Source: Marsupella aquatica (Eukaryota > Plantae > Marchantiophyta). From it: a stretch of DNA of 64,000 nucleotides. The notes below the pieces were generated by a model. The model was not told the DNA's origin. It saw only the letters and a program-made list of their open reading frames with translations, and ran no database searches. Position 1 is the first letter of the stretch; each line of letters begins with the position of its first letter. A program made the translations under genes and the position numbers. The stretch spans positions 13,575,270-13,639,269 of the forward strand of contig OZ316892.1 in assembly GCA_973895155.1 (NCBI GenBank). Reading direction: 5' to 3'. Shown in pieces: positions 5,851 to 54,359 of the stretch.

Positions 5851-6200
5851 GTCCCTGATGTCCAGTATTCTTTCACAGTAATGTAATTTGCTACATTTAG
5901 CTCTACTTGATCCGTCTTGTCTCGATTCACACAGCGGTCCTATCGCTCTCTTTGGGATTGGATGACTTTAAACACCAATCCAATTCATTCGAATTTAGTT
6001 CGATTCGGGTTAGTAATCCTCATCTTGTGATTTTGGAGGCTTCTTCGCCCCCTCGCTGTGCGCAAGGATATGCTCACCGTATTTACACAATTTATCCAAA
6101 ACGATTCGCGCTTTCTGAGAAAGCAAATGACAGTCCTTTGCTCATGGTATAATGGATCTGGATCTGCAGCCGCTGCGAACCGGTTCTTTCACCACAGTAC

Positions 6201-10905: not shown

Positions 10906-11876
10906 GAGGCTGTTAGTGGAATGGGGTGTTTGACCTCCACTGGTTAACACATGTCAACATTGCCTGTCTACTAAAGTGACTAGATTGATACCCTCAAAAA
11001 AATAGGAAAATGGGACCCAATGCCTGTCATTAATATTAGCCCCGGGGGCAAACCAACTCAAGGGAAACCAAAACTAGTCTGGCCATGAGATTTGGGACAG
11101 CCACCTGATAGTGGCCAGCTCAAGTTCCCAGCTAAATTGATACCTTACTTCTGGGATTTACTAAATTGACATTCTTTTGTTGCATAATACTTACTTGCCC
11201 CTGATTTCTTTCTATTTAGCACAATGTTATTTTTTGCATTCATGGGTTTTTTCATTCATGTCCAATGGTTGTTATTGGATCTAGTGGCGCAATTGTACAC
11301 ACCAGTCTCCCTCAAGGTGACTTGACTATGTTGAGCATCGACGACAATCGCAGCAAGATGGTTCGTTGGCAAGCCCATGAACCATCCAACGCACAAGAGT
11401 CGACACAGAGAGATACGTGGTTCACCTCCACATGAGGCTACGTCCACGGGAACACACAAGAGCTTTACTGCATTCTAGGCCGACCGGCCATACCAAGCAT
11501 CCACAGCACAAGCTCTCTCTATCTCTCAACTAGCTCCGTAAGAATGAGCCTGAGTTCCACCTCTCCAAGCAAACACCACTTGGTTATAGAGTGTGCATAG
11601 CATGACTAACCTAACCAAGTCTGCAACTAAGGTTAGCCTTAACTACGATACAGTCGTAACTCTAGACCTAAGAGTAAATCCTAACAATCTCCCCCTTGAC
11701 TCTGGTCTAGGGAGGGTAAAGATTGCACCCTATATGATTGCTCAGCGGGAAGTTCTGGAAAGAAAAACCAAACTGGTTTTTCCCTCTTTATACGAGAGTA
11801 GACCATAACTAAGCCGTAGCCTATACAAGGAATGAGCAAGAGCATATCTCAGTATCTACACAAATGTTAAGTAACC

Positions 11877-19800: not shown

Positions 19801-19929
19801 AACTCTCTTGTATGTTCTCACACCACATAGAAGTTGAAGAGATAAGGACCAACTCTTCAACTAGGGTTTACTCTAACCCTAGTTAACATACTAACCACAG
19901 TTCAATCCAAGACTGAGTTAACCTCTACA
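13888..19929 (-). mobile_element. Ty1/copia LTR retrotransposon B, nested in the integrase of A
   Basis: 323-bp LTRs at 13888-14210 (ends TA) and 19607-19929, TSD ATAGG, PBS gctctaatacca. Removing B restores WDPIACKLIVSRDVSFNE in A. gag-pol 14405-~18436 is broken by stops and frameshifts. Confidence 0.97.
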
Positions 19930-31725: not shown

Positions 31726-33323
31726 CCATAATGTCCATATCATATCAAAGAAGTCTGATGTATTCATGCAATTTGTGGAAATGTGAACCAATTGTGATCT
31801 TGCAACCTGTTCTACCCCGTGCTAGCAGTTTACACTGTGGAGGGGTGTTTCTCATACTTTACATAAGTGATTGCTCTCATATCGAGATCATGTTATGGAC
31901 CCATGACAAGTTCTTTCCAAAACTCCTGGCCAGCTTTGACAAACAAACATGATTATTTGTGTTTGTTGTGATATCAGCAAAAATAGTTTAACCTGGAAAT
32001 GGTACAAAGTCAAGAAATTGATAATAAAATATATAATACGAAGCCAACAGGAAGAAATGATCTATTGGAAATGTTTTATTTATTTTTTGAATTATATTTC
32101 ACTTTTTTGCTTAAATTTAATTCTTTTACTCAAACAATAATTACCTGATGACGAGTTAATTTGTGACACATTTGATCACTAAGAAAGAGGACAATGATAC
32201 ACAGTGGTCATGAGAAAAGATGTCATTTGGTTTTTTATTGATAAATGAAATCAAATGTTGATCGCATCTAAGCAATCAACTGAAGAAATTGAGAAAAACT
32301 CAAAAGAAAACCATGAGTTTGGATTTGTGGTACAAAATAAAGAAAAAATGGGTGAGATAGGGGTGGGCAAGGGGGGGAAATGAATTTGGGTTGCAAGTCT
32401 TCATTTAGTTGAACTAATTGAGTTGAGCTTTAGTTTAGGGTCAGCCAGTAATTATTGAAATTTGATATATTCATTTATCAAATGGATCAAATCCTAGTAG
32501 TGAGGCAATGTGGTAGGTTTTTCTGTTTGCATGAATTGCAATGAAAATCCAACAAGGGGGATTGGCAGCAGAAAATACAAAGGATGTAACCATTCATTCA
32601 ATCTTCATGTGTCACAACATGCTAAGGTTTTGGAAATTATGTATATTCTATTCCTTGGGACACCTTGTTGACATTGTCAAAGCATCCATAGCATGTATCA
32701 TGTGTCATACATCATCCAAAGCATTATTCGTAAATTAGTTTGATGACCCCTTGTTTATGTAAGCTTGTTTTATTGATCTATTTGGAACACAGAAGAGTTG
32801 CACATTGGAATAGATAAATAGATGAGAGTACCAAGATTAAATGGAGGATTCTAAATGAAGTGAGTTTTACAGGTAGTTGGAACAATTTCATTGAAGACAA
32901 ATATGAAAATATTCATGGTAATATGGAGGGTAATACTTCATGCAAAATGTTTCCCTTGGTACCTCTAAGTCTATACACTATATGGAACATTCCATACACT
33001 TCATGCAAGATATTATTTTGTCCATAGTAGTTGAAGGGTCTTAGAGTCCCTTGGTATTTGTATGCCCATAGAGTTATGGAATTTCTTATGTTTGCTAGTT
33101 ACTCCTCTATCCAGAGTATCCAAAGGATTTCCTAAGTTAACTTGGTAAATGTTAGAGAAGTTAAAAAGTTTCTTGTGTTTTTACTTTACCTTGGTAAATG
33201 TTAGAGTAGCTGAAGAGCTTTCTATTCATCATTACTTTAAAAAATTATATACTAAATAGAAAATCCAAAGAGGTTACCAAAAATCACTGATATATCAATC
33301 ACAACTCATTCAAAGGTTATTTT

Positions 33324-33826
33324 CTTTCACCCCCATTTTACCCATTTCTTTGTTTATTTGAAATGTTACTTTGCACTATTCCATTGTTTTTACACTTACG
33401 AGGTCTAACTGTTTTTATTTGACTTGTCTCAAACACAAATAGTCAAATTTGGTTCTTCTTGCATAACTAACCGTGTTTGTTTGTGGCCAATATTGTTGAT
33501 GTGGCTACACATGCATCCAAGAATTTTGGAAGGAGGTTCCCATGGAGGTTTGTAATTACAAAGTAGCAAAAATACGAGAGCATGTATTAGTTTCTTCACT
33601 GACCCAAATGGAAGTTCCTTCCAAAATCCCTAGAAGCATGTGCAATCACATCAACATTAGTGGTCACAAACAAGAACTATTCAGTAGGCAAGAAGAACTA
33701 AATCTGACTATTTGTGTTTGAAGCAAGCCAAAGAAAAACAGTTAAACTAGGTAACTCTAAAAACAATGGAAATTTTTTAAAATAACACTTTAAATAAACA
33801 AAGAAATGGTTGAAAAGGGGGGAAAG
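33324..33826. repeat. Long imperfect inverted repeat (foldback/MITE-like), ~220-bp arms and ~60-bp spacer
   Basis: Reverse-complement pairs include ccatttctttgtttattt/aaataaacaaagaaatgg, caaacacaaatagtca/tgactatttgtgtttg and attttggaagga/tccttccaaaat. Confidence 0.85.
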
Positions 33827-34558
33827 ACAATACCTTTGCCTCAGCCTGTGCTTTTGCCCTTGCTAAGGGCTGTCTTGCATGTGATGGTCCTTGGAATTTT
33901 AGCCCTCTACATTCCCAAACATGCAGGGAAAAGGTAGATTTTGTTTGTCCACAAGATCTTTGTAATATTGTGTGGGATTTGTTCTTGTAAAGTAAAATAA
34001 TTTGTTTGTCTTGAAGGAAAGGGTTGGAATCGTTGCAGCCCTTGCCCTTAGATTTCTTCAAATGCTGTTGTCAGGCCTACCTAGGGAAATGAGACAGCCA
34101 TGAAACATTAGCTCAATGATAAGATGACATGAGTGAATGAAAGGGCCATTTTTCAAGGACCGTGCACATGCAAGACGGCCCAAAGTGATGCTGATCCAAA
34201 TTGGACAGGTGTGGCACTTCACCAGAAAAGAAAAACATGAATCATGCTTCTTTCCATTTCTGTTTGTACTCAATTTTTGTCACTGCACCCAAAAGTTTTA
34301 GTAGATGTTCCTCCATCCACTCTTTCCCCATTTTACAGGTTGTTTGCGCAAGGCTGATTGGGGTCGCAAGAGGTTGACCAGGGGCCAAAACTCTCTTATG
34401 CCGCCCTCGTGAGGCCCCGAGTTGTGCACACTAGCAAACCATGCTAGTCTCAGTCCAACCCTTGGACCTGTACTAGCAAAATGCATAGATTGAACTAGGT
34501 GTGGTCTTTAGGTGTGTTCATTGTAGATATAGGCATCAAGCTCTTGCTACCATTTGAG

Positions 34559-36891
34559 TGTTGAGCATAGACGACAATCGTAACGGCAAGCCCATGAACC
34601 ATCCAACGCACAAGAGTCGACATAGAGAGATACGTAGTTCACCTCCACATGAGGCTACGTCCAAGGGAACACACATGAGCTTTACTGCACTCTAGACCGA
34701 CCGGCCATACCAAGCATCCACAACGCAAGCTCTCTCTATCTCTCAACTAACTCCGTAACAATGAGCCTGAGTTCCCCCTCTCCAAGCAAACACCGCTTGG
34801 TTATAGAGTGTGCACAACATGACTAACCTAACCAAGTCTGCGACTAAGGTTAGCCTTAACTACGATATATTCATAACTCTAGACCTAAGAGTAAATCCTA
34901 ACAATCTCCCCCTTGACTCTGGTCTAGGGGAGGGTAAAGACTGCTACCAATATGACTGCTCAATGGGAAGTTCTGGAAAGAAAAACCAAACCGGTTTTTC
35001 CCTCTTTATACGAGAGTAGACCAGAACTAAGCCGTAGCCTATACAAGGAATGAGCAAGAGCATATCTCAGTATCTACACAAATGTTAAGTAACCCTACTT
35101 GTGAGGCAATTGCAAAACCTGCAACGCATCACGGTGTCTAGAAAAACTCTCCAAAGGAATCACTTTGGTAAAAGCGTCAGCCAGGTTGAGTTTACCGTCA
35201 ATCTTGACTAGCTCAAACATATTATCAGACACAGCCTGCCTGATAAAATGGTACCTGACGTCGATGTGCTTCACTCTACTGTCCATCACCTGGTTCACAG
35301 CAAGGTGGAGTGCACTTTGACTATCACAATGGAGCTTCACATTCCCCTATGGCAATCTCATCTCAGTGATAAGTCTATCCAACCAAATCGCTTCCTTTGT
35401 TGCTTCCGCTGCTACAACATACCCGCTTCTGTAGTAGACTGAGCAATATACTTTTGCAAAGTAGACCTCCAACTTATGCATCCACCTCCAAGTGTGAACA
35501 CATAACCTGTTGTTGACCTCCTCCGATCCAGATCCTGTGCATAGTCAGCATCTACATAGCCCATCAATGATCTAGCATTATCAGCATGTGCATCAAACAA
35601 TAGACCATGATCCACGGTACCATTCAAATACCAAATAATCCACTTCACTGCTTCCCAGTGTACCTTCCCTGGATTCGACATGTACCTGCTCACCTTGCCC
35701 ATAGCCATGGCAAGATCAGGTCTAGTGCAAGTCATCAAATACATGAGACTCCCCACTGCCTTGTCATACGGAACCTTTGACATCAACCCCTTCTCTGTCT
35801 CATCCGTAGGATAGAAAGCTGATGACAACTTGAAGTGTGGAGCCAACGGGGTATTTACTGGCTTGCTATCCCCCATGTTGAACCTTGCAATTACCTTCCT
35901 CGCATAACTGCTCTGCGTCAACCATAGCTTACCAACCTTCAAGTCCCTAGTGATCTCCATACCCAAAATTCTCTTAGCTAGCCCTAAGTCCTTCATCTTA
36001 AACTCTGCACTAAGCAGTGCCTTGAGCTTAACAATATCAGACCTATCATTGGCCGCAATAAGCATGTCATCCACATAAAGTACTAAAACAATGAACCCAA
36101 AAACAACATTCTTCACCGATTTAAGATACACACATGGGTCAAACACACTCCTGTGAAAGCCTTGTGCATGGATCCAATCATCAAACCGCTTATTCCACTG
36201 TCTTGGTGACTACTTCAACCCGTACAAGGATCTCACCAATCTGCAAACCAAATCCTCTTGCCCTTTCTTCACAAAACCTAGCAGTTGTCTCATGAAGATC
36301 ACCTCTTCCAAGATGCCATAGAGGAAGGCTGTGACAACATCCATCTGATCTAGCAGCAGACCAAACATAACAACAAGCACACACAATAGCCGTATTGTTG
36401 AGTACTTAGCAACTGGTGAGAAGACCTCATTGTAATCCACACCTTTTTCCTGTGTGAATCCCTTGGCTACCAACCTAGCTTTGTAGACCTTCGATCCACC
36501 TCCTATGGATTGATCCTTCAGCTTGTATATCCACTTGCTGTCCCTCAGGCAGCTTGACAAGCTCCCAAGTTTTGTTGTCCTTCAGTGACTGCATTTCCAT
36601 TTTCATTGCTACAGCCCACTCTTGCTTCTCCTTTGAAGCACTTGCTTCATGAAATGAAGAAGGTTCCCCTTCTTCCAAAATCAACGCGTCACCCTCATCA
36701 TCAGTAACAAAGTCCTCTTGCAATTGAGATGAATCAACCCACTGTCCATACCTTGGTGGAGCGCGTATAGTGCGACCAGATGCTCTTCTAGCCGATGACT
36801 CCGGTTGATCTGCGTGTGCTCGTACAATTTGAAGCTCAGCAGCATCCACTTGCTACTCACCAACATCAACAAACTCCTCTGGTTTCTCTGG
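34559..36891 (-). mobile_element. Truncated Ty1/copia element C, same family as A: 3' LTR, RNase H, RT and part of the INT linker
   Basis: 345-bp LTR at 34559-34903 nearly identical to the A LTRs, PPT present, pol near-identical to A 11877-13700. Ends abruptly at the TIR of element D and does not resume. Confidence 0.95.
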
Positions 36892-37356
36892 CACCTCGGG
36901 GGTCTCACTATATGGAGGACCCCCCCATCACCTGCGACGTTTTCATGCCTAGACCCCCATACTTATTAAGTTGAAAATTTTTTTTCCTCCCTCTTTCTTT
37001 CTTCTAAGAGTCTAAAATCCAAATTGTATTGCCCCTATAATTTGTGAAGTAAAGTGTCACATATCAATATAAAATGCCTAGAAAGAAAAGATAAGTCTAT
37101 GTCAGTACCTTGTGAAGTCGTATGTCAGACATGGCACGCCCTGCAACAGTTCTTGCACCTTTGTCGACCTTAAACTTTGATCATTTCAATGCATCATTTA
37201 TATTGTGTACCTAAAAGGTCATCCCAATATAAATCTTACGTGCATAAGTGGGATGGCCTTTAAGGTCACAACATAAATAATCCATTCCACCCATTGATCA
37301 CCAATCCCATGCTCCATCCATACTCCATTTAAAACTTATGTTGAGAGATGTAACAT

Positions 37357-37415
37357 GTGACGGAGGGGAATTGAACCCCTAATTGAGAAAGGATCTCAAG
37401 TTGCCAATCCGTCAC
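37357..37415 (-). ncRNA. D-armless tRNA-like structure with B-box; possible A-box at 37428-37440
   Basis: Minus strand reads GTGACGG ATTGGCAAC TTGAG-ATCCTTT-CTCAA TT AGGGG-TTCAATT-CCCCT CCGTCAC: perfect 7-bp acceptor stem, 5+7 anticodon-like arm and canonical T arm. Confidence 0.6.
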
Positions 37416-37450
37416 CCCCTATCCTATCCCACTACACCCACTAATATTAA

Positions 37451-37529
37451 CAAAATAAAATATATATACAGACTCTCAAAAACTAAACAACAAAATAAAA
37501 CATATATACAGACTCTCAAAAACTAAACA
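37451..37529. repeat. 40-bp tandem duplication in the transposase 3' region
   Basis: caaaataaaa(t/c)atatatacagactctcaaaaactaaaca occurs twice. Confidence 0.9.
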
Positions 37530-37541
37530 GTAACATGATAT

Positions 37542-40500
37542 TCATACCATTGTTTGAAGATACTGATCCAAAGCACGTCTATCTATTGGATCCAACACAT
37601 AGATACGATCCATAACCCCTTCTTTCATGGTTAAACTAACACTAGCAATGACCATTTCAATATCCATCCATTTCAAATCAGTGGTATCATATCTGAATTC
37701 ACTTTTGCTCTTACCAATAGGACTATACCAATTTAACAACAGTTCACAAATGTTACCTGATTGCCCTGCAAGTGGAGTTGGCCTATCCATCAAATCAATT
37801 GGTGACCGACAATTGCCCCACCTACTGCCATACTTCTGTCTCATTTGGACAATCCGACCCAACCAAAAATATTTCTTACCTGCTGAGATTGCCTCCACCA
37901 CAACCTTATTCTTTCCTCCCTTTCTTTTTCCAGATCTAGTACTTGGAGCAAGACTATCATCAGACTCAAATGCAATTGCACAATCAGTGCCAACATCAAC
38001 AAAACATGAGTTAGGATTGACTTCTTGCACTTTTCTCTTGCCAGTACTATAGTATAGCACTTGTTTCACCCTTGTCAGCCTATCTTTTGACAAATGCGGA
38101 TTTCCTACCAACTGGCTTACCAGAGTGGATTTGTAAATCACCTTGCCTTCATAAGTAACAGTAGGCACTACCTTGGTACGATTCTGTACATTAGTTACAG
38201 CATGGACAACTGATCCAAACACATGCCGAACTTCATGACCTAATGTCTCAAGCTCATCTGAGGGGTCTACATCAAACTGTATATCATCTCTGTGTACATC
38301 ATCTGAATGCATCTCAGGAACAACAATGGGATCTGGTTCTGTTAACCATGCATCTATTCTATTCAGATCATCCTCAGGATCTTCCAATTCATGAAAATCT
38401 CCAGTTGGGCGAGGACCTATGTCTGGTGGTTGGTGCTCTACTTGCTCCTCAGAATCATTGCAAACAATTGCTTCCTTCAGAACCACCTCTAGTGGCCAGG
38501 TCTCACTTTCCACAACCCAAGGACATGTCCACCATCTCTTTCTAGCTGCTGGTAAGGAACTTCGTGGAGACATCTGCAATTGATGCATAAGATCCTTAGC
38601 AGCAACAAAACCTTCTTTAAGGGCTGCAACCACTAATTCATTAGTCTCAATGAGAGAATAGTCAAGTAGATTTGGTGCTTCCTCCCCTTCCCCTATAGGA
38701 TGAATCTTCCCCCATACATGATCTTGTTTCTTATGTGAACGACCTATCTTCAAGCCTTCTGGTCCATATTCTAGGGCAGCAAGCCGGTTCAGTCCAACAG
38801 CACTATCCAATAGAGAGCCAAAATCATAATTCCGCTCATGGCCACTCATGCCTCCTACCTTGCTGAAGAAAATCTCACAACAATCTGAACCTAGCAAGTG
38901 GAAGGGAACACCTAGATGTGGGAACTTATCTCGAAAGGCACAAATTAACAGCACAATGAAATGACATGACATGTTAACATCATGAAAAGCCTGAATAGAC
39001 ATCATGTCTTTCTCAGTGTGTGCTGCAAAGTTCCCACCCACTGAATGGTCACCAAACCTCAACCACAATCTCCACAAACGTAGAAAGAATGAAACCTTGG
39101 ATGCTAACACAATACGGGACCTCAAATCATGAACTGGAGAAAAGAAAATATCTAAGTAATCTGCACAAATCTCCAAGTACAACTGAGTTCCTAAACTTCG
39201 TTCATGTTGTACATCTCTCCTCTCATACATATCTTTCAGACATTGCTGCACTCTTCTTGCTGCTATTCGTTGTGGACCTGCCCAATTCTGCCGGTCAGTC
39301 CTATTCACATCATCCCAAGCCATGCCATGTTCATGAATTGGATAATGATTGTAGACATTAGCTACATAAGATAAAGATGCATGTTGATCTCCTAGCACCA
39401 GTAAAGAAGACACTCTGTCTAAGGGGTTTATCATCTTTTTCCCATTATGAGGTTGGTCTTGGTCACCAAAGCCATACAAATCTCCATTTGGTAGAATTGA
39501 AACAGAGTATGTCCACCCTTCCCACCCAACTCCGTACCTTGGGTATGATCCATTCTGCCCTCTGTAATCTTCCAGCATCAGCTTTCGGCGACGTGCATCA
39601 CCATCACTAGCATGTCCAAGCAAAGGGCCTACCATAGCTCTACAATATTCATCCCAAAAAGCCTTTAACTGGACCCAATGCTCTCGTACCCAAGAAGCTG
39701 TGAACTTATTACAAGTTGGAAGTGCACACACAGCCAATTTAGGTAAGGACTCATGCAGAGGATTCACAATCACAACTCGGGCATACATGCACTTGGGGCA
39801 TTGTTCAAATGTACTTACAATTTTATCATACCCCTCATCACCTTCACCAACTAGAATTTCCAAACCATAGGAGCATACATGCTGCTCTGAAGGTCCACAG
39901 AAACCAATGAGAGTATCATACTTTGCCTCCCACCTGAAACACAGACATGCAATTTTTCAATATCACAGCAATTCCAGCCAAGTGCTACTTGTAAAGTCAT
40001 TAAAAAAACAATTGGAAAAATGTCCAGTTCCAATTACCTAGGGCGTTCTTTGATCCTTGTTTCATCCTCAGCAAAGATAACAGGCACATCCCCCTCAATG
40101 CCCAATGAGTGCTTTGCAGCAGACAACACTCTAGCAATCTCCTGAAAGGTTTCCTTCCGTAACCCGGTTCGAAAAGGTGTGAGTTTTGCTCTATCACGTT
40201 TTAGGGTCACAAGGCTAGGGGCTGTCAAGTTTCGTGCAAAACAATGAGCAACTTGACGGCCCCCAAATTGGAACATAGCCTGAGCAATAGCTCGAGTCCT
40301 ATTACTGTAACGATTACCTTTTGGCTTCCTGCCTAAATTGCGAGCTACATCCTTCAAGAAATCCCACAAACCCTCCTTACCACCAAATGCACCATTCCTG
40401 TGTCCATTCAAAATACTCCTAAGAAACAATCTCAAATCCTTCCTGTCTGCTGCAACTCCTAACAACTCCTCTAGTTTTCGTTTCCTGGTGCTCAAGGCAC

Positions 40501-42118
40501 ATACTTTCTGAGCCTGCAAAGCTAACAACCAACGCTCTTTTCGTCGCACAGAGTTCAGGTTGTGCACTTGATCTCTTAACTCTGTGTTGGTCAAATAATC
40601 CAAACGTATACCACCAGCAGTGGTTCGGCTCCCTCTGTGGACTACTGCTTCCGCTTCCCTGTGCACCCGTCCACGAAAATCATCTTCTAGTGTTATAGAA
40701 TCACATTCACTACAAGTTAGATTTTCAAATCCTCCTCCATTCTGTGATAACCTCAAGCAATCCTTGTGTCTAAAACAGCCTGCTATACTCACAACACTCT
40801 CTCTACTTGGATGGAAAACATCCAAGCAACAACTTGGCTCACAATGCCATGTAATTCCCCCAGACTGATCATCTAAAATGCCAGAAATATCATAAGATAT
40901 ACCCTTCCATAACAGTCGAGGCACACCTCTCTCTACCCATAATCCCCAGCAAAGCAAACTCAGACCAAGATCAACAGATTCACACACACCTGAACCTGAA
41001 CCTGAACTGCTGCCTGTCCGGGACCCATCATCTTTAAAGAACTTCAAAATCCCGCTCTGACCAGGATGTAGGTCCCTAGAATCAGTCCTCTTTGGCCTGC
41101 CCCTCTTCCCAGACCTCAAGGCAAGCATTTTTGTGTCATGCCTAGTCTCCAATGCATCCAAGTGATCTCGACTCACTAAGTGTGTCCTCAAATTGGGCTC
41201 CAAGGTAAGCTTCTTGGGGCACAAGTCAGTGTGAAGCATTCCACAGACAGTACATCGAACCTTAAACAGGAAAGACCTGTTTACATACTCAGGAGTACTG
41301 GGATCAGGAACAATAGAGAATAGTTTGCCATCATCCCCAAGCTCAGCATTCAATCGTTGAACTATCTCAACACCTACTTTGATGGCGTCTGCATGATCAT
41401 ATTCTGGCTTCTCAGAGATGTCTGCTACCTGAACCAAAGTAGAAGGAATGCCCCTTCTCCGACAATAGTTATCCTTGTGCTTATTGAAGACCAAGTGTTT
41501 GGTCTTAAAATTACTAAAGCAATTGGAGATGGATTTAGGGTTCTGAGAGTTGTCTGCATTGCCATAAGTTTCCCTACATTCAAGACACTCCAGATGCCCT
41601 CGAACATCTGTCCCCTCATCCCAGGTACGAATTCTCCAATTGTGATCACCATAACCCTTCTTATGTACCCATTTCTCTAACCTCATCCACTCATCTTTCC
41701 ATAGCTTTGATGGGACATCTCCCATCAATTGTGACTCAAAAGAAGCCCTTACAGGGGAGGGTGCTAGTGCCGTTGGCCCCAGTTGTGGTGTCCCAGTATT
41801 TGGACCCAATGATGCAGGAGTGCAAGGATGACAGGGTACTGGTGGGATCCTCCCACCATCTCCAAGTTCTTGTTGTACAACAATAACTCTTCCATCCAGC
41901 TCAGACAGATCAATTAATTTCTCATGTACAAGTTTCACTCGACCAGGAAGTCTCTCATCCCAAAAATCAAAGTCAAAGTCTAGAGTAGAGGCAATACGAG
42001 CCCTAAAATCATGTAGGGTGTGTCCTTCTTTGAATGACAAAACACAAATTGGTAAATCAGCCTTGTCATCCCCAACTTTGCGTATTAATTTAACAGAGTT
42101 GGGTTTAGGGGCTGCCAT
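37542..42118 (-). CDS. P-element-like DDE transposase, ~1490 aa, two exons (42118-40038, 39933-37542)
   Basis: A 104-nt intron (AG|GTAATT..TTTCAG|G) joins the 694-aa and 773-aa ORFs in frame to give IFAEDETRIKERPRWEAKYDTLIGFCG. Further motifs: HASDGD, DQPHNGKK (DxxH), DRQN, GTQLYL..YLDIFF, LGSDCCEIFFS. No internal stops. Confidence 0.85.
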
Positions 42119-42613
42119 TGCAATACAAATCTAGAACATGCATAGCACCATTGCTTTTGGAGTTGATAACAGAAAGACCTGCACAAATACATTTGAAATA
42201 CACACAAGGGAAACACATTAGGATCTTCAAGAGATGCAATGACAACATACACATTCTCATGTAATGTACATAATGTCAGCATACATTTAACAATAGAAGT
42301 GCTAATAGGCCAAAACACTTTATAATGCAATCCATCATACATGCAAATGTATTCAGTGAAAATCATGATATACCGCTAAAGTTGGATAAAATATCTTTGG
42401 ACAAAATATCCTTTTCGCCTGCTTTTCTAACAATTCCCGAAGTTTAGTGCTTCTGCTCATCAAAATGCAGCACTATTAGTGACCTTAATTATGACAAAAT
42501 GTCAACACTAATAAAATTGGGTACTACCACCCATGATGCACCTTAAGTATGTGCCTTGCTCATACCCCACTAAGACGTTGAAACCTAAGTAATAGGTTTG
42601 TTCATTATTCAGA

Positions 42614-43288
42614 TCATTGGAGCCATGAAATGTGGTCCCTGATTGGAGTCTTGAGGTGTGGATCAATAGGATGACGGGGGCAATAAAACATCTGTCGCTG
42701 TTGTCCATGTGCTTCATGGTCCCAGATGTCCCTATCATGAGCGAACCCTTTGCTTTTGATCATCTGGAGACAATCTGTATGCCAGGCATTTGGACATCGT
42801 AGACATTGTACCATGTTCTTGACCATCTGACCCTCAAGACTCTGATAACATGTCACACATGTATGCAGTGGGCAGGACTTTGCATCAGCTACCAAACACC
42901 CAAAGCAATAAAATCGTACACAAAAACGATCAGAGCATTTTCGCACAATTGTAGGTGACGGTCCCACAGTGCGGCACCCATAACACATGGCCTGGTCCTG
43001 GTTACAATTTGGGCAAAACCATGGCTTCCCTCCATGATGGAGGGGAAGGACTACACAGGGGCAAGAGTCATTAGGGGCTTCATCTCCAACCACATAATGA
43101 AATTGCCTGTGACATGGCCCATCACAAATTACCAACTTCCCACCATGCTCACAAATTGCACAAACATGAGGGCTAGTTTGTAGAATCTCTTGCTCAGAGA
43201 ACAACGGAATACGCAATACCTCTTCCAAAGAGGCTCCTCTGTCAGAGGACTGTGTTGCTTTCTTTATGTTTGAAGTCCTTGTCGGCAT
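42614..43288 (-). CDS. EDM2-like composite PHD-finger protein (transposon cargo)
   Basis: CAICEHGGKLVICDGPCHRQFH..WFCPNC..CYGC..CSDRFCVRFY..CPLHTCVTC..QCLRCPNAWHTDCL..FYCPRHPIDPHLKTPIRDH. The Cys/His spacing and the YCxxHxIDxxLxTPxRDH ending recall the EDM2 PHD cassette. The true 5' end is uncertain. Confidence 0.8.
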   Translation of the reverse strand: MPTRTSNIKKATQSSDRGASLEEVLRIPLFSEQEILQTSPHVCAICEHGGKLVICDGPCHRQFHYVVGDEAPNDSCPCVVLPLHHGGKPWFCPNCNQDQAMCYGCRTVGPSPTIVRKCSDRFCVRFYCFGCLVADAKSCPLHTCVTCYQSLEGQMVKNMVQCLRCPNAWHTDCLQMIKSKGFAHDRDIWDHEAHGQQRQMFYCPRHPIDPHLKTPIRDHISWLQ

Positions 43289-43604
43289 GGTTCAACTGCA
43301 ATCATCACAAAGCACATCACATATGAGGGGGACATGATGATAGTGAGCAATCCATAGACAAAGATAAGGTTAATCATAGCACCTGCTCCAATGATCTGCA
43401 AACCTCCCTCCCAGATGAAGTCAACTACACAGTGCAACCTGAACACCCACCAACCAAGACATACATAAATACAATGCCAGCTTGCAAAACTTTGCCACAT
43501 AATGGGAATGAAAAATATTCTCATATATCATGGATGGTACAATTGCAGCCTTGCAAACAAAGGCCTAGTCATATATGAACAACGCATCCATGTACTATCA
43601 AGGA

Positions 43605-44003
43605 CTACAATGTCAAGCATCCATGGGTTGTAACCTTAGCTTGATCTGATATACTATCTGGGGCTACAATATCAAGCTCAGTTGAATGTGGAATACTATC
43701 AGGGACTACAATGTCAAGCGTGTCCGGGATGACAATCTTGCGTAAAAGACACTCATTTTGAGGCCAAATGGTTGGCCTTATACAAGAGCACTTCCAACGA
43801 CGTGTGACAACTTTGCCATGCTTTCCCATGTATGTCCTAGTAACAAGCCTTCCACGCATTTTCAAGCAGAAGCAATGGAACCATTCAAAATTCCCATCAC
43901 CAACCCTGCACTTGACACAAGGTTCACACCAGCAACATTCATCTGGATGCTGCAGAAGGAGCTTCTCATAATTCGCTTCTAATGTAATGCCCAATATAGC
44001 CAT
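43605..44003 (-). CDS. Small Cys-rich PHD-like ORF or exon (cargo)
   Basis: CCWCEPCVKC..EWFHCFCL..WKCSC; good start context (gccATGg); possible donor after 43635; DIV(V/A)PDSI repeats. Confidence 0.5.
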   Translation of the reverse strand: MAILGITLEANYEKLLLQHPDECCWCEPCVKCRVGDGNFEWFHCFCLKMRGRLVTRTYMGKHGKVVTRRWKCSCIRPTIWPQNECLLRKIVIPDTLDIVVPDSIPHSTELDIVAPDSISDQAKVTTHGCLTL

Positions 44004-45242
44004 GGCACTATTTTTTTATACTCGGTGAATGGCCAGACGATTAGACGTGCAATGACAGGCAACTTACAATTCACTAGGTACACTATGTGTTCTAGCAAAC
44101 TGCTTCACCGCAAGTGTTGGTGCTCACTGCTGCAAGCGCTGATGACAACCTCTACAATTCCTTTTGCAACCTGTGAACAAAATTGAAACCACCATTCAAT
44201 TTCTAAGTTTCAAAAACTTCCCATTACATGAAGACAACCAATTGGCCATGCATGTTACTACAGCAATAAAATAATAACCCAATCGCTCAACAGACCTGAA
44301 TAGCTAACCTGAATAGGATCAAGTTCAGAATCCAGAATGGTAATGCCCTTGCCCAGAAGCTTGAGAAACAAAAGAGAATTTAAAATCAAGCACGAGCGTC
44401 ATCCACGTCTTGACCAGGCCCGCCACCCAGTATGGCTGGAGGCTGTGGTCCCCCCTGGCTGAGTAAACACTTAAAGAAGTCTTCTCTTCTAGATGACTTA
44501 AAGAAAATTGCAGGAACCAGCCAACGGGACACCAAGGCATGTAATAGAGAACCAGATTTGTGCGGGTGTGTGGGGGACGACAGAAGTCAAGTTACATGAT
44601 TTTTTTCCTGGGGTCCAGCCCATGGATGGAGATCATGTAAGGTGGTCAATCATGGCAAGTGCAATCATTGGAGACCTGTACTCGCGGTTACTCTAACGAT
44701 GCATCCAAAAAACATGTGCGTCAAGTCGTCGATGCGGACACAGAAGGAGAGATGAGTATGGACAACGTCGAGACAAATGACGACAATACTGAGCTAGTAT
44801 TCGGCTGGGAAGTTGGAGCTGGATCTCAGCAGTGGCTCCAAACCTTATCTGCGAGGGCATGGCGAGCTCTGGAGGACAAAATACTCAAAGAGCTTATCGC
44901 CATTCACGGAGCTCAGAACAGGAATTTTATAGTTGAAAAGCTAAACGGGCAGATCAGGTGCTTCCTCGTCTATGACCGCTACCAGATCGACTCTAGGTGT
45001 GCCATGCGTGATAGATTTGGGCGTCAAATAGTAGCAAGCAAGCAAGTACGATCGTCAAAGTAGGCAGCGCCTACCTCCCGATTGAGCAACGCAGCAATGC
45101 AGCTCCAATCCTGGCACTCCGGTTTGAGATATCGCAACACTCCCTGCAGTAGCCACCTCCCGTTTCAGCAAGCTAGCAGCTCCCATTTTAGAAAGCAGCA
45201 ATGCAACACTCTCGACACCCACCTCCCGGAGCGCAACACTCT

Positions 45243-46090
45243 TGCTCGATCCTTCACTCCCGGGTTCACTTCAAGCAGCAGCGCAGCTACAAAGTCTCGC
45301 TCTCCCCTTCACTCCCGGGTTCACTTCAAGCAGCAGCGCAGCTGCAAAGTGTCGCTCTCCCCTTCACTCTAATCAGCACACGCAACTGAGAAGTCTCGCT
45401 CTCTCCTTCACTCTAATCAGCGCACGCAACTGAGAAGTCTCGCTCTCCCCTTCACTCTAAGCAGCAGCGCAGCTGAGATGTCTCGCTCTCCCCTTCACTC
45501 TAAACAGCAGCGCAGCCAGGAACTCTTGGTCGATCCTTCACTTCAAGCAGCAACGGCAACAGCACAGCCGAGAGCGCAACACTCTCGCTCTCCCCTTCAC
45601 TCCAAGTAGCAGCGCTTCACTCGATCCTTCGCTCGATCCTTCGCCGAGAACTCTCGCTCTCCCCTTCACTCTCGCTCTCCCCTTCACTCCTTCGCTCGAT
45701 CCTTCGCCGAGAACTCTTGCTTGATCTTTCACTCCAGCCGCAGCAGCAACGCAGCTCGATCCTTCTCCGAGAAATCTTGCTTGATCCTTCACTCCAGCCG
45801 CAGCAGCAACGCAGCTCGATCCTTCACTCCAGCCGCAGCTCGATCCTTCACTCCAGCCGCAGCTCGATCCTTCACTCCAGCCGCAGCTCGATCCTTCACT
45901 CCAGCCGCAGCAGCAACGCAGCTCGATCCTTCACTCCAGCCGCAGCAGCAGTGCAGTCGAGAGCACAACAGGAGTCGATCCTTCACTCCAGCAACAGTGT
46001 AGTCGAGAGCACACTCTCGCTCGATCCGACCTTCACTCCAAGTGCAGTCGAGAGCACACTCTCGCTCGATCCGACCTTCACTCCAAGCAG
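45243..46090. repeat. Complex tandem array inside D with 24-, ~45- and ~55-bp units sharing a CCTTCACTC core
   Basis: cgatccttcactccagccgcagct repeats at 45817-45910; ccttcactctaatcagc..tctcgctct units at 45361-45510; about twenty core copies by eye. Confidence 0.9.
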
Positions 46091-48734
46091 GAGCACAACT
46101 GGTTTAGACCCCGTTTAGGCCATTTGCTGCAAGGTACAAACAAAAGAGACTCTGTTGAGGCAAAGAGCGGGTGGGGCCAAAGGGATAGTGGAGGGAAACG
46201 ACACGGGAGGGACTGACAAGGGCCAATTGAGGTAAACGAGACACGTTAAACAGAAAAATTTCAAACTTAATCCCGGTCAAACCCTAAACGTGAGTCCCCA
46301 TAAAACCAGATCATTCTCAAATTCTTGCCATGTTAACATATTAGAAAAATTAGGAAAATATATTGGGAATGTTATGTGTGCCACGTGTACCAATGACATA
46401 GTGACATGTGTACTTTACATAGTCCGACACAAAGACCCCCTAACTTCTTTGTATGCCTTCCATCTACAAAGTCAAAAATATTAATATCCCTATTATTCTT
46501 ACAAGTTGTCCAACATATAAAGTTGGCCCTATTGTTCTTACACAAATCTTCTTAAGTCTTCCGAGAAACCCAATTAACGGACCCTATACTTCGTCGCACG
46601 TGATATGAGATTTTCGCGGAGTGAGACCCCCGAGATGGTGACGGGGTCACTGTTTGCCAGAACCATATCGTAACTTAGCGTTGGATTATAATTGTGTATA
46701 TAAACTGAAAGACAAATCATTTGTCGTGTAAATCATTTGATATCTGACATTATACAAGGAGAACTTTGCTCTAAACCGCCTCCGCATGACTCATTGATCA
46801 TGTAATCACCATACCTAGTAACGAAGGTAGAGCCTGACCGCTGTCTTCAATGTGGAAACTGTCTCTGTAGTTATCAAACACTCAGCACCTTCCTCACATG
46901 TTAAGTAGATATTGAATGGCAAATGACAAAGTTCATAAACTTTCTGGCCTTTGGCAACCCAAACTTTTAAAATCAAATAAAACAATGAAGCCGGGCAACT
47001 AAGCCTTGCCCAACTCATATATAGGCAGCACCATAGATTGACCCAATCCATTGCTCAGGGCTTTCCCCGGCAGTTTGGGGAGGCATAAACTGCCACTCTC
47101 CCCATAGCAAAACCTGGTGAATCCACAGTACTAAAATAAGTCAATAATATTCTCAAGAAATTTAAAAAGTGCACCATTTTGTCCTCCCTGAAGCTAGTGG
47201 ACAGTGGAGGTTTAAGCACCTGTTACATGCAACAGAGCCCTTATCATACTCTACAAGCAGGTCTACAAGCCCCTCCACGTGGCAGGGAATTTGGCAGGTA
47301 ATTTGGCAGGTAATTGAACCTTACACCTTTAGATCCTTGAGTCAATCTTCTTCTTAGCTCAACAAGTCTCACTCAAGTTTTACTTTTACATCCCAACTAA
47401 AATGCAAGATAGAAACTAGAAAAGTAGCTGGCTTTGATTAGTTGGCTAGGGAATTAGCCTGGAACCGAGAGGTCCCAGATACAACCCCCCTCCACACGCA
47501 AGGGATGTAAAGGCAGTGTGGAGATGTGCAATGGTGGGAGTATTGGTTTCTCCTTGTTAAGAATTGCTCTTAGTCTTGTGACTCATAGGTTATGGCACTT
47601 AGGCTAACCACAGTTAGGATCTTAGCTGAGGTTAGGTTAGTCGTGTGTGACCTTGTATATACCAGGGCTAGTGTAAGCCGCTGGTGTGGTGTGCTTACGG
47701 ATTGTAACGGAGAAACTTGAGGAAGAGGGAGAGCATGTGTGTTCGTTTACTCTTGAAGTAAAGCTTGAGTGTTCGTGTGGACGTAACCTTGGAGAAGAGG
47801 TGAACCACGTAGAGATTGTGTCAACTACGTGTGCATGGAATGAGTCATGGTTGTATGGTCGTTGCAAATGACATCTTAGTTCAACAATTGGTATCAGAGC
47901 AAGCCTGGGAGGTGACGTTGAGGTGATCAAATTTTTGTGACGTGTTGGCGACGGTTTTTCCAGCAGTTAGAGTTGGTGGATTTCACGGAGATCTATTGCA
48001 TGGAACTTGGAGGTGTTGGGCTCAACAGATAGATCGGGGCAAGGGCTTTCCGACGGTGCAAAGAAATCTCTGAACAGAGTTCGTGGTGCGGAGGAATTCA
48101 TGTTTCCGTCGTTCTGGATTTTTTGTGATTCGTGTTCGACGGTTCTTTGGGGGGGGGAACTGAGATCGTTTTCCCGACGGTGTGAGCTTTGTGGTGCACG
48201 AGGCGTCACAATCTTTAGCTCAAATCGTAGATCGGGCAAAGCTGATCATTTCGGTAGCTGGTTTGCTATCGAGGGTGTAGTAGTGCGATGTACCAAGCAA
48301 AAGAGCCGTTCTGAGTTTCTGACTGGCTATGGAGTCTTCTTTTGACTGAAGCGCGGTTTCTTGTCGTTGCGTTCGACTCAAAGGAAGAAACGGGAAGTGC
48401 AACGGCTCAACGGAGAGATCGCGATGCAGTGGTCATTTTGAGTCCAAGATTGACACTTGACGCGGAGTGAAGGAGTCGTGACGGGAATTTTTTACTCTGC
48501 TAGAGTTGCAAACGGTGCCGGTGCAATTCGGTAACATTTCCCGTCGACAACTAGTCTTTATCTGGTGTAAAGTGATAACGGCAGTGTGAGTAACCCAACA
48601 AATTTATTTTTTGTGCACATTTTGCCTTAGAATAGGGCCTTTTTGGTGGTGTGTATACACACCCTCCCGACCCTTGCACCCCTGTCAATACCCCGTTGGC
48701 AACCCCCTCCTCCTCCTCGCTAATACTCCCATCG

Positions 48735-48890
48735 CGGACGTCCCGGCCGTCCCAGACGTCGCAACCGGCACAGACGTCCCAGACGTCACGGCCGGCGAGG
48801 ACGTCGCGGCCGTACCGGACGTCGCAGCCGGCACGGACGTCCCAGACGACCTGACTGTCGCAGGCGTCTCGGACGTCCCGGCCGTCGCAG
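48735..48890. repeat. GC-rich degenerate ~18-bp repeats in the leader of E
   Basis: Recurring gacgtcccagacgtcgc and ggacgtcccggccgtc units. Confidence 0.75.
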
Positions 48891-49605
48891 CTCCATCCCT
48901 ACCTATTTTGACTTGGTTTTTTACTCCACGGCCCCCTATGCACTGCCTGGCCCGTCACGCGTCGCCTATACGCGGATGCACCTTTTTTAAGACAGTATTT
49001 TTGTGTTAAGGGGCTTAAACCCCCTTAGGCCCGGTTTTTTAATCCTTTCCAGGCTTCTCATTCGTTAAACGGCATCTTGGGCCCGGTGACCCACCAAATT
49101 AACCGCTTGGACAGGGGGAACGACCCCCTGTGAGACCTGTTGCACAGTCCAAGGAATATTCCGAAAAAAACAGAGAGCTGTTTTTCGGCCTTTAGTCAAA
49201 GATTCCAAGGTCCGAACAGTAACTTTTTTTAGATCTTTTTTGGCGAGAACGTAGCCACTGAAGCTAGCAACTCGGTGCACCACTCGATTTGAAGTTCTGA
49301 CGACGGGTGGTACTTGGAATTTTTCTTATTCCCCAAGGTGGTCAAAACGGGGAAGAATTTTTGAGTTTTACCCACCCCGACCAAACGTGAAAAAGTTTTT
49401 CGTCGGAACTCGATTTCAATTTTGGATTTCAGCGTTGGCTTGCTAGGTTGGTGGGCTAAGTGGCGGTGATAAGTTTCAAGTTTTTTGGAAAGTTGCGAAA
49501 AATGACATTTTTTCGTGATTTGGATTTGAGTCAACGAGAAGGAAGGAAGGAAAAAGCATATAAGGAGTAGCACAGCAATAGCACGTGGAGAACATTGGGA
49601 GGATA

Positions 49606-52600
49606 ATGATGGCATCTAAGTTTGGAGGTGTCAAGTTTGAGGTGGAAAAATATGATGGGCGCACAGATTATTTGCTATGGGAGAAGCAGGTTAAGGGAAT
49701 TCTTCGTGCTATGGGCCTAGATTATCTGCTATCGACTCAGGAGGAGTCTAGCAGTGAGGAGGAGATTCCGTTGAGGAAATGGAGGCAAGAGCAAGTGATT
49801 GCTGTGAATGTGGTTATGCTGTATCTGAAGCCGCATATCATTAAGAAGCTGGACGACTACGAGGATTGCATATCCTTATTCAAGGCCCTCAGAGAGAAGT
49901 ACTACCGAGAGGATGCCTCAGATCGGTTGTACAAGAAGTCTCTCTTGATGAGCTTGAGGCTAAAAGAAGGAGGCAAGCTTCGAGATCACTTGGATGAATT
50001 CGACAGCCTAGCTGTAGATTTGTCAAATCTTGGCAAGGGAGTGGAAGATGAAGATAAGGCATTGCTTCTTCTCAGTTCCTTACCCCCTCGTATCAAAGTT
50101 TGAAGCAGGTTCTCTTGTATAGAGATCTCAAAACCATTTTATATGATGAGGTGGTAAGCTCTTTGTTGTCAGATGATGCACAGAAGAAACTGGGTCATGC
50201 CCAAACACCATCTTCATCTGGCAGTGCATTGAATGTAAATCGCGGGAGGACTCAACAACGGATGACTGGTGAAAACAGGTCCTTTTCACAAACGTACCCC
50301 TCACGGAATAGAGGCAAGGAGAAGGCTCACTCTAAGTCTAGATCCAGGTCTAGAGAGAAATCTCTAGAAAGGAAACCAATTATATGCTGGAAATGTAACA
50401 AGCCTGGCCACATGAAACGAGACTGTCGAGTCAAGCAGACTCATCAACCATCAGCGAACGCAACCACTGATGTTGATATGATTGACTTGCTTGATGATGA
50501 AATCTTGTGAAGTCCAGATGTTGCCCTTTGCATTTCATCCAGTAACAATGGTGATGAATGGATTTTAGATTGTGCCTGTACCTATCATATTTGTTGTATG
50601 AAAGAGTTTTTTACTTCTTACTCAGTATCAACCGGTTCCGTGTTGATGGGGAATGATCATCCTTGTCAAATTGTTGGAATTGGATCCATGAAAATTCGGA
50701 TGTTTGATGGAGCTGTCCGAACAGTGAGTAATGTCAGACACATACCTGACATGAAAAAGAACTTGATTTCTCTTGGAATGTTGGAAGCAAATGGATGTCA
50801 GTGGAGTCTGCTGATGGTATTCTTCAAGTGTCAACCGGAGGCAAGGTTGTCATGAAGGGTAAGCGGCACAGGAATCTATATTTGTTGGAGGGCAACGTGA
50901 TTTGTGAAGAAGCCAATGTAACTAGATCTCAAGGCGAGATGACTCAGTTATGGCACTGCAGATTGGGACACATGAGTGAAAAAGGTTTTGCGGTACTTCG
51001 CAGGAAAGGACTTCTTTCTAATTTGGAATCTACTAAGCTAGATTTTTGTGAACACTGTGTGCTTGGGAAGCAGCACAAGAGAACCTTTGGTGTTGGAACT
51101 CACAATACCAAAGCTATACTTGAGTATGTACATAGTGATGTGTGGGGTCCAGCCCCAACTCCCTCACTTTTTGGAAAATTGTACTATGTCACGTTCATTG
51201 ATGATTACTCACGGTATGTGTGGATCACATTTCTACACGCCAAGTCTGAAGTTTTTGGCACTTTTAAGAAGTGGAAAGCCCAAATTGAGAATCAAACTGG
51301 ATCCAAGGTGAGATATCTGCGATCAGATAACGGCGGGGAGTACAGTTCAAGTGAGTTTGAACTATATTGTGTAGAGCAAGGGATTACTCGTCATCTCACG
51401 ACAGTTTATACTCCTCAACAGAATGATGTTTGTGAGCGGCTAAACCGAACACTATTGGAGCGATCGAGGAGTATGTTGAGCCAATCAGGTTTACCACATG
51501 AATTTTGGGCTGAAGCTATAAATACAGCAGCTTATTTGGTAAATCTTTCTCCTTCAAGTGCAATCAATTTCAAGACGCCGTTTGAAATGAGATATGGACG
51601 GCACGCAGACTATCAGGTTTTGAGAGTCTTTGGAAGTGATGCATATGCTCTCACACCTAAGCATAATCGATCTAAACTAGATTCTACTTCCAAGAAGTGT
51701 CTTTTTCTTGGTTATCAACCAGGTGTGAAAGGTTATAGGCTATGGGATCCAGAAGCTTGTACGTTGCTTGTCAGTAGAGATGTATCCTTTAATGAATCCA
51801 GATCATCAAAGGAGGGGGAGAATGCTCAGGCTTCCCGTACTGACAAAGGTAAATCTCCTATCCTGGACCATGTTGTGGGGGAGATTGGTCATGAGAGTTT
51901 TCATGACATAAATGAAGGAGGTGCTCCGAGAATGGATCTGGTTCCGGTATTGGAACAAGAGGAGCAAGTTGTTGTTGGAATACCTCAAATTCAACCAACA
52001 GAACAAGATCAACCAGAATCATCAGCTAGAAAATCAAGACGTACTACTCAAGCTCCTACAAGGTATGGACAATGGACAGATTCATCAAGGTTAGATGATG
52101 TTGACATTGCACCTGAAGATGATGACAGAGCACTGATCTTGGAAGAAGGAGAACCTTCTCCTTATCATGAGGCGTGCATTTCAGACGAGAAAGATGAATG
52201 GAATGCAGCGATGCAGAGGGAGTTGCAATCTTTAAGTGACAACAGAACATGAGAGCTGGTGCAACTGCCAAGTGATCAACAAGTGGTGGATAGCAAATGG
52301 ATTTACAAGCTGAAGGACAACTCTTCAGATGGAGGAGACAAGATATACAAGGCAAGGCTTGTTGCCAAGGGATTCACTCAAGAGAAGGGAGTGGATTACA
52401 ATGAGGTCTTCTCTCCAGTTGCCAAGTATTTCACGATACGAATTTTGTGTCAACTTGTTATGTTTTTTGATCGATCTGGTGTTAGATCAAATGGATGTTG
52501 TTACTGCTTTTCTCTATGGCACCTTGGAAGAACAAATTTTCATGAGGCAACCACTGGGCTTTGTGAAGAAGGGCCAAGAGAGTTTAGTTTGCAGGTTGCT

Positions 52601-53741
52601 TAAGTCCTTGTATGGATTGAAGCAAGCTCCTCGACAATGGAACAAACGGTTTGATGATTTCATGCTTGCACAAGGATTCACTAGGATGGTGTATGACCCT
52701 TGTGTGTATACAAAATCAGTCAAGAATGGTGTGTTTGGTTTGCTCATTCTGGTGCTCTATGTGGATGACATGTTGATTGCGGCTAAGGATCAAACTGAGG
52801 TTGACAAACTCAAAGCAAAATTGAGTTCTGAATTCCGAATGAAGGATCTTGGGAAAGCCAAGAAGATCTTAGGTATGGAGATTACGAGGAACTTTGAAAC
52901 TGGACAATTGTGGCTGAATCAAGGCAAGTATGCTGAAAAGGTACTTGCAAGATTCAACATGGAAAATTGTAAGCCAGTAAGTATTCCTTTGGCTCCACAT
53001 TTCAAGTTATCATCGGCTTTCTGCCCCACGGATCCAGTGGAGAGAGGCTTGATGACTAAGGTTCCTTATGAGAAGGCAGTGGGCAGTCTAATGTATTTGA
53101 TGACATGTACCAGGCCTGATCTAGCCCTAGCAATGGGCAAAGTGAGTAGATTCATGTCAAATCCAGGGAAGGTACATTGGGAGGCTGTGAAATGGATTCT
53201 CAGGTATCTTAAGGGCACAATAGACTATGGTCTGTTATTTGATAGTAGATCAAACAAAACCAAATCTTTGGTTGGCTATGTAGATTCTGACTACGGAGGC
53301 TGTCTGGAAACAAGGAGGTCAACGACTGGGTATGTGTTTACTCTTGGAAGAGGATGCATAAGTTGGAGATCTACCTTGCAGAAGTGTGTATCTCAGTCTA
53401 CTACAGAAGCAGAATATGTTGCAGCAGCAGAAGCAGCAAAGGAAGCAATTTGGTTGGATAAGCTGGCCACTGAGATGGGATTGGAGCATGGAAAAATGAC
53501 TCTTCATTGTGACAGCCAAAGTGCGCTTCACCTAGCTATAAACCAGGTTATGGATAGCAGGGTGAAACACATTGACATCAGGTACCATTTTATTAGGCAA
53601 GCAATGTCTGATAAAATGTTTGAGCTAGTCAAGATTGATGGAAAGCTCAACCCGGCTGATGCTTTTACCAAAGTGATTCCTTTGGAGAGTTACTCAAGAC
53701 ATCGTGCTACTTTGCAAGTTTTGCATTTGCAGCACAAGTAG
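49606..53741 (+). pseudogene. Element E gag-pol with frameshifts and stops
   Basis: EKYDG..DYLLW, CWKCNKPGH, WILDCAC, HSDVWGP, RSDNGGEY, YVDDML and KHIDIRYHF motifs; lesions near 50090, 50810, 52250 and 52470. Confidence 0.95.
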
Positions 53742-54359
53742 AGTAACTTAATAATATGTAATTTTTGTATATGGGTTACTCAATCCTGTTATGGCTACGG
53801 CTTAATTCTAGTTAACCCTTAGTTAACCTTAAATGGTTTTTAGGGGGACACCTATGGTTTTAGGTGATTGTCTAGAATTTCCCGTTGAGTATCTCATATG
53901 GATAGCAGAAATTGCAGTCTCCAAGACTAGAGTCAAGGGGGAGTTTGTTAAGAATTGCTCTTAGTCTTGTGACTCATAGGTTACGGCACTTAGGCTAACC
54001 AAAGTTAGGATCTTAGCTGAGGTTAGGTTAGTCGTGTGTGACTTTGTATATACCAGGGCTAGTGTAAGCCGCTGGTGTGGTGTGCTTACTGATTGTAACG
54101 GAGCAACTTGAGGAAGAGGGAGAGCATGTGTGTTCGTTTACTCTTGAAGTAAAGCTTGAGTGTTCGTGTGGATGTAGCCTTGGAGAAGAGGTGAACCACG
54201 TAGAGATTGTGTCGACTACGTGTGCATGGAATGAGTCATGGTTGTATGGTCATTGCGAATGACATCTTAGTTCAACACTCCTCAGCCTCTAGCTGGTCAC
54301 TTTGGGGCCCTAGTCCAACTCTCTCTCCTTCCTAGTATGGGTAGTGTTGGATCCCTGAC

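Follow-up and report, generated by a model that had tools for sequence, protein, structure and literature searches.

In the passages cited here, the fingers of EDM2 are described as binding H3K9me2 and the AAE complex as promoting distal polyadenylation (PMC7472560, PMC7529245, PMC4980392, PMC10241880). Arabidopsis EDM2 is also described as repressing the DNA transposon Mu1, where it supports H3K9me2/CHG, and as promoting COPIA4 transcripts (PMC3632883), and a finger pattern common to EDM2 and NSD1 has been noted (PMC3776765). Among transposons themselves, VANC of VANDAL is presented as an anti-silencing gene and Rehavkus transposases as carriers of a PHD finger (PMC6446971), and TET/JBP genes with an anti-silencing function are reported on fungal DNA transposons (PMC12730594). 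The section cited from a 2023 review gives seven TIR superfamilies in plants, with P not included (PMC10741241).

We analyzed a 64,000-nucleotide stretch of DNA (hereafter, the window) that contains a stand-alone open reading frame (ORF) with EDM2-type fingers, which we refer to as the cargo. Our results make it very likely that the cargo is an intact accessory gene in a multicopy P-like DNA transposon and that it was derived from the three-finger module of streptophyte EDM2. Transposon accessories that counter silencing or act on chromatin are known; an EDM2-derived accessory as a separate gene is new in the literature searched. Our literature searches on EDM2 and transposons, on PHD capture by DNA transposons, and on P elements in plants found no description of such EDM2-derived cargo. 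P-like families may already be catalogued in Repbase or in supplements.

The cargo protein

The cargo lies on the minus strand at 42614..43288 and translates as an unbroken, intronless frame of 224 aa from ATG to TGA; in the same frame, one stop precedes the ATG and another follows the tail. Pfam searches matched PHDvar_NSD at 33.1 bits, over the cut-off of 27, and PHD-1st_NSD, PHD_NSD, and PHD under their cut-offs, and a phmmer search against the PDB matched NSD2 (E 4e-6). Confirming the multi-PHD ligand pattern that the preliminary description had reported, each of the 24 zinc ligands expected of the EDM2/NSD three-finger cassette, as defined by conservation in 106 mostly seed-plant EDM2-type sequences, is a Cys or His in the cargo, and 23 of these residues are identical. 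The single ligand change, His to Cys at residue 128, is common to 89% of the stand-alone relatives described below. The succession of a C4HC3 unit and then C4HC2H units is that of the EDM2/ELP atypical PHD cluster.

The distinctive EDM2 tail noted previously, YCxxHxIDxxLxTPxRDH, was recovered at residues 202-219, and the protein ends 5 residues past this motif. Scored on a matrix derived from 97 tails of EDM2-type proteins, the cargo tail reached 31.2 bits, and group means were 31-42 in liverwort, moss, lycophyte, and fern-like groups, 25 in Triticeae, -23 in 9 chlorophyte-like sequences, and -29 in 7 non-EDM2 NSD-like sequences. These tail scores distinguish streptophyte EDM2 from proteins of the chlorophyte-like and NSD-like groups, and the cargo has the tail. 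The shortened loops were also evident, as the C131-C139 loop in our alignment holds 7 residues versus roughly 20-35 in EDM2 sequences, making it about 15-25 residues shorter. With a mean pLDDT of 86 and a pTM of 0.81 in its AlphaFold2 model, the 224-aa cargo is a naturally occurring and well-folding form of the EDM2 fingers, for which no structure from a plant EDM2 turned up in our PDB searches.

The N terminus of the cargo is basic. Pfam matches were to PHD families only, with no catalytic domain in the cargo, and neither a SET nor a PWWP domain was detected by Pfam, so the cargo falls outside the definition of an NSD methyltransferase. By the ORF and its Pfam matches, the N-terminal RFD/acidic region and the C-terminal PGR, ELP methyltransferase-like, and Pro-rich domains are all missing as well, which makes the cargo a derived module and not an EDM2. 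The 12 positions before finger 1 contain 2 acidic residues in the cargo and 0-2 across its family, compared to a mean of 5.0 in 103 EDM2-type sequences. Such acidic residues grip the H3 tail. Due to this reduced acidic run, unchanged H3K9me2 reading by the cargo is not to be assumed.

The carrier element and its transposase

A terminal inverted repeat, a Copia break at the left end, a transposase, and coverage establish that the cargo is transposon-borne, as had been proposed. The element spans approximately 36895-46634 (9.7 kb), is bounded by a 15-bp inverted repeat, and encloses the cargo. The left (36895..36909, plus strand) and right (46620..46634, minus strand) repeats are exact over 15 bp and may extend to 36892 and 46637, respectively; the extended repeats have CA ends and are identical at 17 of 18 positions (CAC versus CAT). 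Each strand of the whole window has a single occurrence of the 15-mer, and a subterminal motif, ATCACNTGCGACG, is common to both element ends about 30 bp inside. Similarity to the Copia sequence at 11329-13692 ends at 36894, where the left repeat starts, and contigs of runs X1 and X3 continue at this point as Copia sequence (loose ends). The one copy in the window (n = 1) interrupts a Copia within an LTR cluster. The element flanks do not match as a P-type target-site duplication of 7-9 bp, and the other Copia half is missing on the right; the absence of this half indicates that the copy is rearranged and the duplication unreadable.

In the surrounding window, nested and truncated Copia elements occupy 11329-23592, 34559-36894, and 47554-54277, the last of which has LTRs that are 97% identical and several stops or frameshifts. 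An imperfect palindrome at 33311-33838 (528 bp, 76%) is MITE- or foldback-like. The repeat cluster is flanked by host genes, one containing a PI4-kinase N-terminal region (PF19274; approximately 1300-6000, minus strand) and the other a MIF4G-like/CBP80-type gene (PF09090; approximately 59800-62100, plus strand).

Between one TIR pair, a PHD-like ORF, the EDM2-type ORF, and the transposase follow in this order on one strand. The PHD-like ORF (43605..44003, minus strand, 132 aa), which lies upstream of the cargo, contains a Cys/His pattern (C-x-C...WFHxxC...WxCxC) and three short repeats and has a weak ING-type resemblance. The closest match, the YNG1 PHD, was not significant (E 8.2), and an Atlas search with this ORF gave no usable match; five of its six listed variants are synonymous. 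A GC-rich tandem-repeat array (45157..46087) is found within the right end, where it precedes the three ORFs. A crude pattern scan placed acceptor-like sites at 44171, 43439, and 42179, in each case upstream of an ORF, and detected poly(A)-like hexamers after the PHD stop.

Exon 1 of the transposase (40038..42118, minus strand; 693 codons plus 2 nt) ends with the first catalytic-type motif, AEDET, and is joined over a predicted 104-nt GT-AG intron (39934..40037, minus strand) that keeps the frame to exon 2 (37542..39933, minus strand), which carries the GHASDGD, DxxH, and GSDCCE-FFS motifs and a beta-rich C-terminal domain. Both exons are open, the sequence across the junction is one continuous protein in transposase relatives, and the predicted product is approximately 1490 aa. 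Of 5833 candidates examined in a search with exon 2, 63 proved to be relatives, and many of these came from Riccia. The window transposase and its two closest relatives were sister to 14 Riccia proteins (SH-aLRT 99), a position that makes a liverwort the probable host of the element. Many of the Riccia members of this family are annotated as hypothetical proteins. The beta-rich C-terminal domain (37545-37900, minus strand) is conserved in Riccia and other relatives and is without a database match; it may be BAH-like.

Pfam and PDB sequence searches left the transposase unclassified, and a fold search classified a relative. The model of P0013, which is 44% identical to exon 2 (alignment A5), matched the Drosophila P transposase (PDB 6p5a) with a Foldseek E of 6.7e-9 and a VIA Z of 25.2 (rmsd 3.2, 376 aligned), with the next family at Z 10.7. 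On the modeled fold of P0013 and the motifs conserved in the window protein, the transposase of the element is P-type. P elements are present in Chlamydomonas. A THAP domain had no Pfam match on exon 1 at E 0.1, and Pfam misses the catalytic core too. Scans of viral and prokaryotic contigs for the cargo or the transposase found nothing.

Copies, selection, and origin of the cargo

The stretch was wholly or partly present in 7 of 9 listed runs from 5 studies, with run X7 (one 83-bp exact piece) not counted as support. The best of these runs may be the source sample itself. Summed contig depth in run X1 was 576-648 over the cargo and 473-779 over the transposase, values that are not copy numbers, and depth over both genes in run X6 was mostly 12-27 outside spikes. 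Cargo and transposase depths were of the same order in four runs, and the runs carry three organism labels. These depths suggest tens of near-identical element copies. None of the contig pieces listed bridged the cargo and the transposase, so that linkage of the two genes in other copies rests on depth. The main copies are nearly identical (a 554-nt record of run X3 contains one difference), and diverged cargo relatives of several versions coexist in run X1 at depth 12-25.

The variants show signs of purifying selection on the finger core, in agreement with the preliminary description of a gene kept under selection. In core residues 29-224, 11 of 20 listed variants were synonymous and 9 were nonsynonymous, with an expected synonymous share of 0.21-0.28 (p 0.0007-0.009; omega approximately 0.2-0.3), and none fell at a zinc ligand. 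Residues 1-28 contained 3 synonymous and 7 nonsynonymous variants, with the 28/29 boundary for this test chosen after the variants were seen. No stop codons occurred among the cargo variants, and the retained indels, an in-frame 15-nt deletion and a compensated pair, were both in the N-terminal part. The variant count consisted of 31 rows plus one more, minus two foreign-repeat rows (43103 and 43144) that were excluded along with run X6 indels at 43133-43148; the excluded positions stem from high-depth matches of 45-60 bp whose flanks differ and whose source is probably another repeat. Two metagenome loci with full-length cargo relatives, L001 and L002, are each disrupted and have no transposase neighbor within loci of <1.9 kb, and the relatives P0005 and P0073 each lack one ligand. 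A link to a transposase was seen for the family of the window element only.

A word search found six cargo relatives at 44-82% identity, and a word-indexed search for longer relatives returned only a CHD-like protein. A HMMER library search with the cargo gave 518 matches at E 0.001, of which the best 150 were used and served as the source of EDM2s. Among these best 150 of 518, non-family matches were overwhelmingly EDM2-type, with named matches from Selaginella, Neltuma, Marchantia, Riccia, Calypogeia, Ceratodon, and Triticeae. A single clade of 19 short sequences in the 164-sequence tree (support 97) contained at least 18 members besides the cargo, and this stand-alone clade had support of 100/100 and 100/99 in subset trees, with a stem of 0.9-1.6 changes per column and 39-82% identity among members. 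Such a separate, long-stemmed, and diverse clade supports the earlier view that the capture is old. Relatives at 43-82% identity retain the ligands, tail, length, and stop position, and C128 and FSxxE are conserved as family-specific features.

The EDM2 origin that had been claimed was upheld by the tail and by profile scores but not by the finger-core tree, in which the clade fell outside EDM2 with NSD-like outgroups. A cassette tree with a chlorophyte root placed the cargo clade inside streptophyte EDM2 (86/75). NSD-like roots, which are NSD-like cassettes with no named NSD sequence among them, placed it outside chlorophyte and streptophyte EDM2 together (92/68 and 93/87, unstarred support), also when the tail was omitted. 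Since the finger core by itself does not settle a place within EDM2, we base the EDM2 assignment on the tail and the scores. The AU test rejected a sister position to seed-plant EDM2 (p-AU 0.013) and did not reject liverwort-short (0.48), chlorophyte-like (0.475), Triticeae (0.24), or liverwort-long (0.25) placements. By these topologies, the trees leave the donor unfixed.

Among 141 non-family sequences, the best phmmer partner of P0001 was Marchantia Mp1g03210 (P0080; 100 bits). The family profile scored 132 for liverwort short, 129 for liverwort long, 106 for seed/other, and 79 for non-EDM2 proteins. Reverse scoring gave mean bits with small margins (liverwort short, 94.8; deep, 92.9; liverwort long, 92.5; non-EDM2, 80.6), and 2 of 11 stand-alone members scored best on non-EDM2 sequences. 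We infer a bryophyte-type short EDM2 paralog as the donor, with the liverwort short-paralog class as the likeliest source. In this class, 4 of 6 sequences end 23-24 residues past the last Cys and the other two 65-67 residues past it, and the cargo ends 21-23 residues past it. Because most of the short-paralog sequences end where the cargo ends, truncation of the C terminus may predate capture. The absence of the C-terminal EDM2 domains thus stands as first described, but loss may be the wrong mechanism, as the missing C terminus of the cargo may have been inherited from a short paralog; the N-terminal EDM2 part was certainly lost. Liverwort/moss-type EDM2 paralogs with an end point at the cassette or shortly beyond it include P0079, P0080, P0082, P0083, P0120, P0108, P0162, and P0192, and a full-length liverwort EDM2 (P0089) occurs alongside short paralogs. 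Short (approximately 230-340 aa) EDM2-like PHD-only proteins of Triticeae (P0085 and P0234-P0247) form an independent clade.

Possible roles of the cargo and comparison with known systems

The PHD of RAG2 directs RAG1, and chromodomains direct chromovirus integrases. We tentatively favor, at somewhat short of an even chance, a role for the cargo as an accessory chromatin reader partnering the transposase of its element. The cargo protein would be expressed and nuclear, as its basic N terminus suggests, and would bind histone H3 tails or nucleosomes with drifted specificity; lacking a catalytic domain, it would act only by binding. The reduced acidic run, the missing catalytic part, and the basic N terminus together make chromatin binding likely, with the mark read not necessarily the same, and the reduced acidic run argues against a faithful H3K9me2 mimic. 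Contact with the transposase would tether or license the transposase on nucleosomes and may give the element access to its own silenced ends and/or steer insertion into repeat-rich chromatin. Such contact would also keep the benefit with the carrying element, and long retention would be better explained by this element-specific role than by a genome-wide decoy. A wider scenario, doubtful as a whole, is that a bryophyte P-like transposon lineage captured the EDM2 reader module as a RAG2-like second subunit that, with the PHD-like ORF and possibly a reader-type transposase C-terminal domain, would read histone marks to reactivate the element and choose insertion sites.

We ranked a transposase partner above a dominant-negative decoy that would occupy EDM2 chromatin sites or titrate EDM2 partners to lift EDM2-dependent repression of the element, which we consider unlikely. 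A reader module without effector domains would suit a decoy, as would EDM2 repression of Mu1 with support of H3K9me2/CHG there, as described in part of one report (PMC3632883), and the anti-silencing genes on transposons described for VANC (PMC6446971) and TET/JBP (PMC12730594). However, the drop in acidic residues before finger 1 from a mean of 5.0 to 2 (0-2 in the family) and the cost to the host of genome-wide action argue against a decoy, and EDM2 is described as also promoting COPIA4 transcripts (PMC3632883). Quite unlikely, in our estimation, is a read-through helper that would recruit host AIPP1/ASI1 and thereby carry Pol II through the upstream ORFs as far as the distal transposase exons. 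The transposase comes last among the three same-strand ORFs, the acceptor-like sites and poly(A)-like hexamers noted above lie on its upstream side, and the AAE complex is described as promoting distal polyadenylation (PMC7472560), but these candidate splice and poly(A) sites are pattern matches and nothing in the cargo protein would be specific to its element.

Two further explanations concern whether the cargo has a function in the element at all and whether its clade belongs to transposons. The near identity of the main copies and the broken copies among distant relatives would be expected of a Pack-MULE-like captured fragment without function that is intact because the family amplified recently. 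We regard such a passenger as very improbable, considering the synonymous bias in the cargo core, the ligands, tail, length, and stop position retained by relatives at 43-82% identity, and the family-specific conservation of C128 and FSxxE. The clade might instead consist mainly of short EDM2-like host readers, one member of which was recently taken by the window element only, since Triticeae annotations include short EDM2-like genes with PHD fingers only. This is improbable as well, because informative annotation was found on 0 of 14 clade members (P0002-P0007, P0072-P0076, P0094, P0097, and P0183), whereas host EDM2 paralogs have it; run X1 contains several diverged versions side by side at low depth; and members are single ORFs that are often decayed, like TE copies. 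A transposase partner remains the reading that we favor. The accessory at this locus derives from a named host protein that reads transposon heterochromatin, and it has stayed a gene of its own throughout a diverse clade. Experiments could therefore ask here whether a transposon has put a host chromatin reader to work for itself. Its carrier is a P-like element in a land plant, and P is absent from the plant list in the cited section of PMC10741241.

Compared with EDM2/ELP as described in part in PMC7529245 and PMC7472560, and with the nearest liverwort short paralogs (Mp1g03210, Riccia R1sor_003797, and Calypogeia CAM6087769), the cargo has the same C4HC3 plus C4HC2H-type three-finger cassette and the EDM2 tail, and several of the liverwort short paralogs share its end point and a common IWxH motif before the tail. 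Unlike EDM2/ELP, to which it is approximately 28% to 33% identical, the cargo is without the N-terminal region and the DNMT1-RFD, PGR, ELP, and Pro-rich parts and has shorter loops, the His-to-Cys swap, a reduced acidic run, and a transposon location. The finger arrangement is also that of the NSD1-3 PHD cluster (PDB 29hg, 7cro, and 9gbf; Z 5.7, 74 residues, rmsd 2.4), but the cargo is without SET and PWWP domains and NSD-like sequences are without the tail. With the P superfamily (P, 1360, and Galileo, as described in part in PMC3698922), the element shares the catalytic core fold as modeled for the relative P0013, short TIRs, a subterminal motif, and an intron. It differs in its 9.7-kb length, two extra ORFs, and a transposase of approximately 1490 aa at 11-14% identity, and a THAP match and target-site duplication were not seen in the window element. 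In contrast to passive Pack-MULE capture of unselected fragments in elements that are transposase-less, both transposase exons are open and the cargo shows a synonymous bias. As with VANC, TET/JBP, and the Rehavkus PHD, a DNA transposon here keeps an extra gene or domain dealing with host chromatin. TET/JBP is a demethylase, VANC a DNA-binding anti-silencer, and the Rehavkus finger is fused to the transposase; the cargo is none of these, being a separate, noncatalytic gene from a named host heterochromatin reader.
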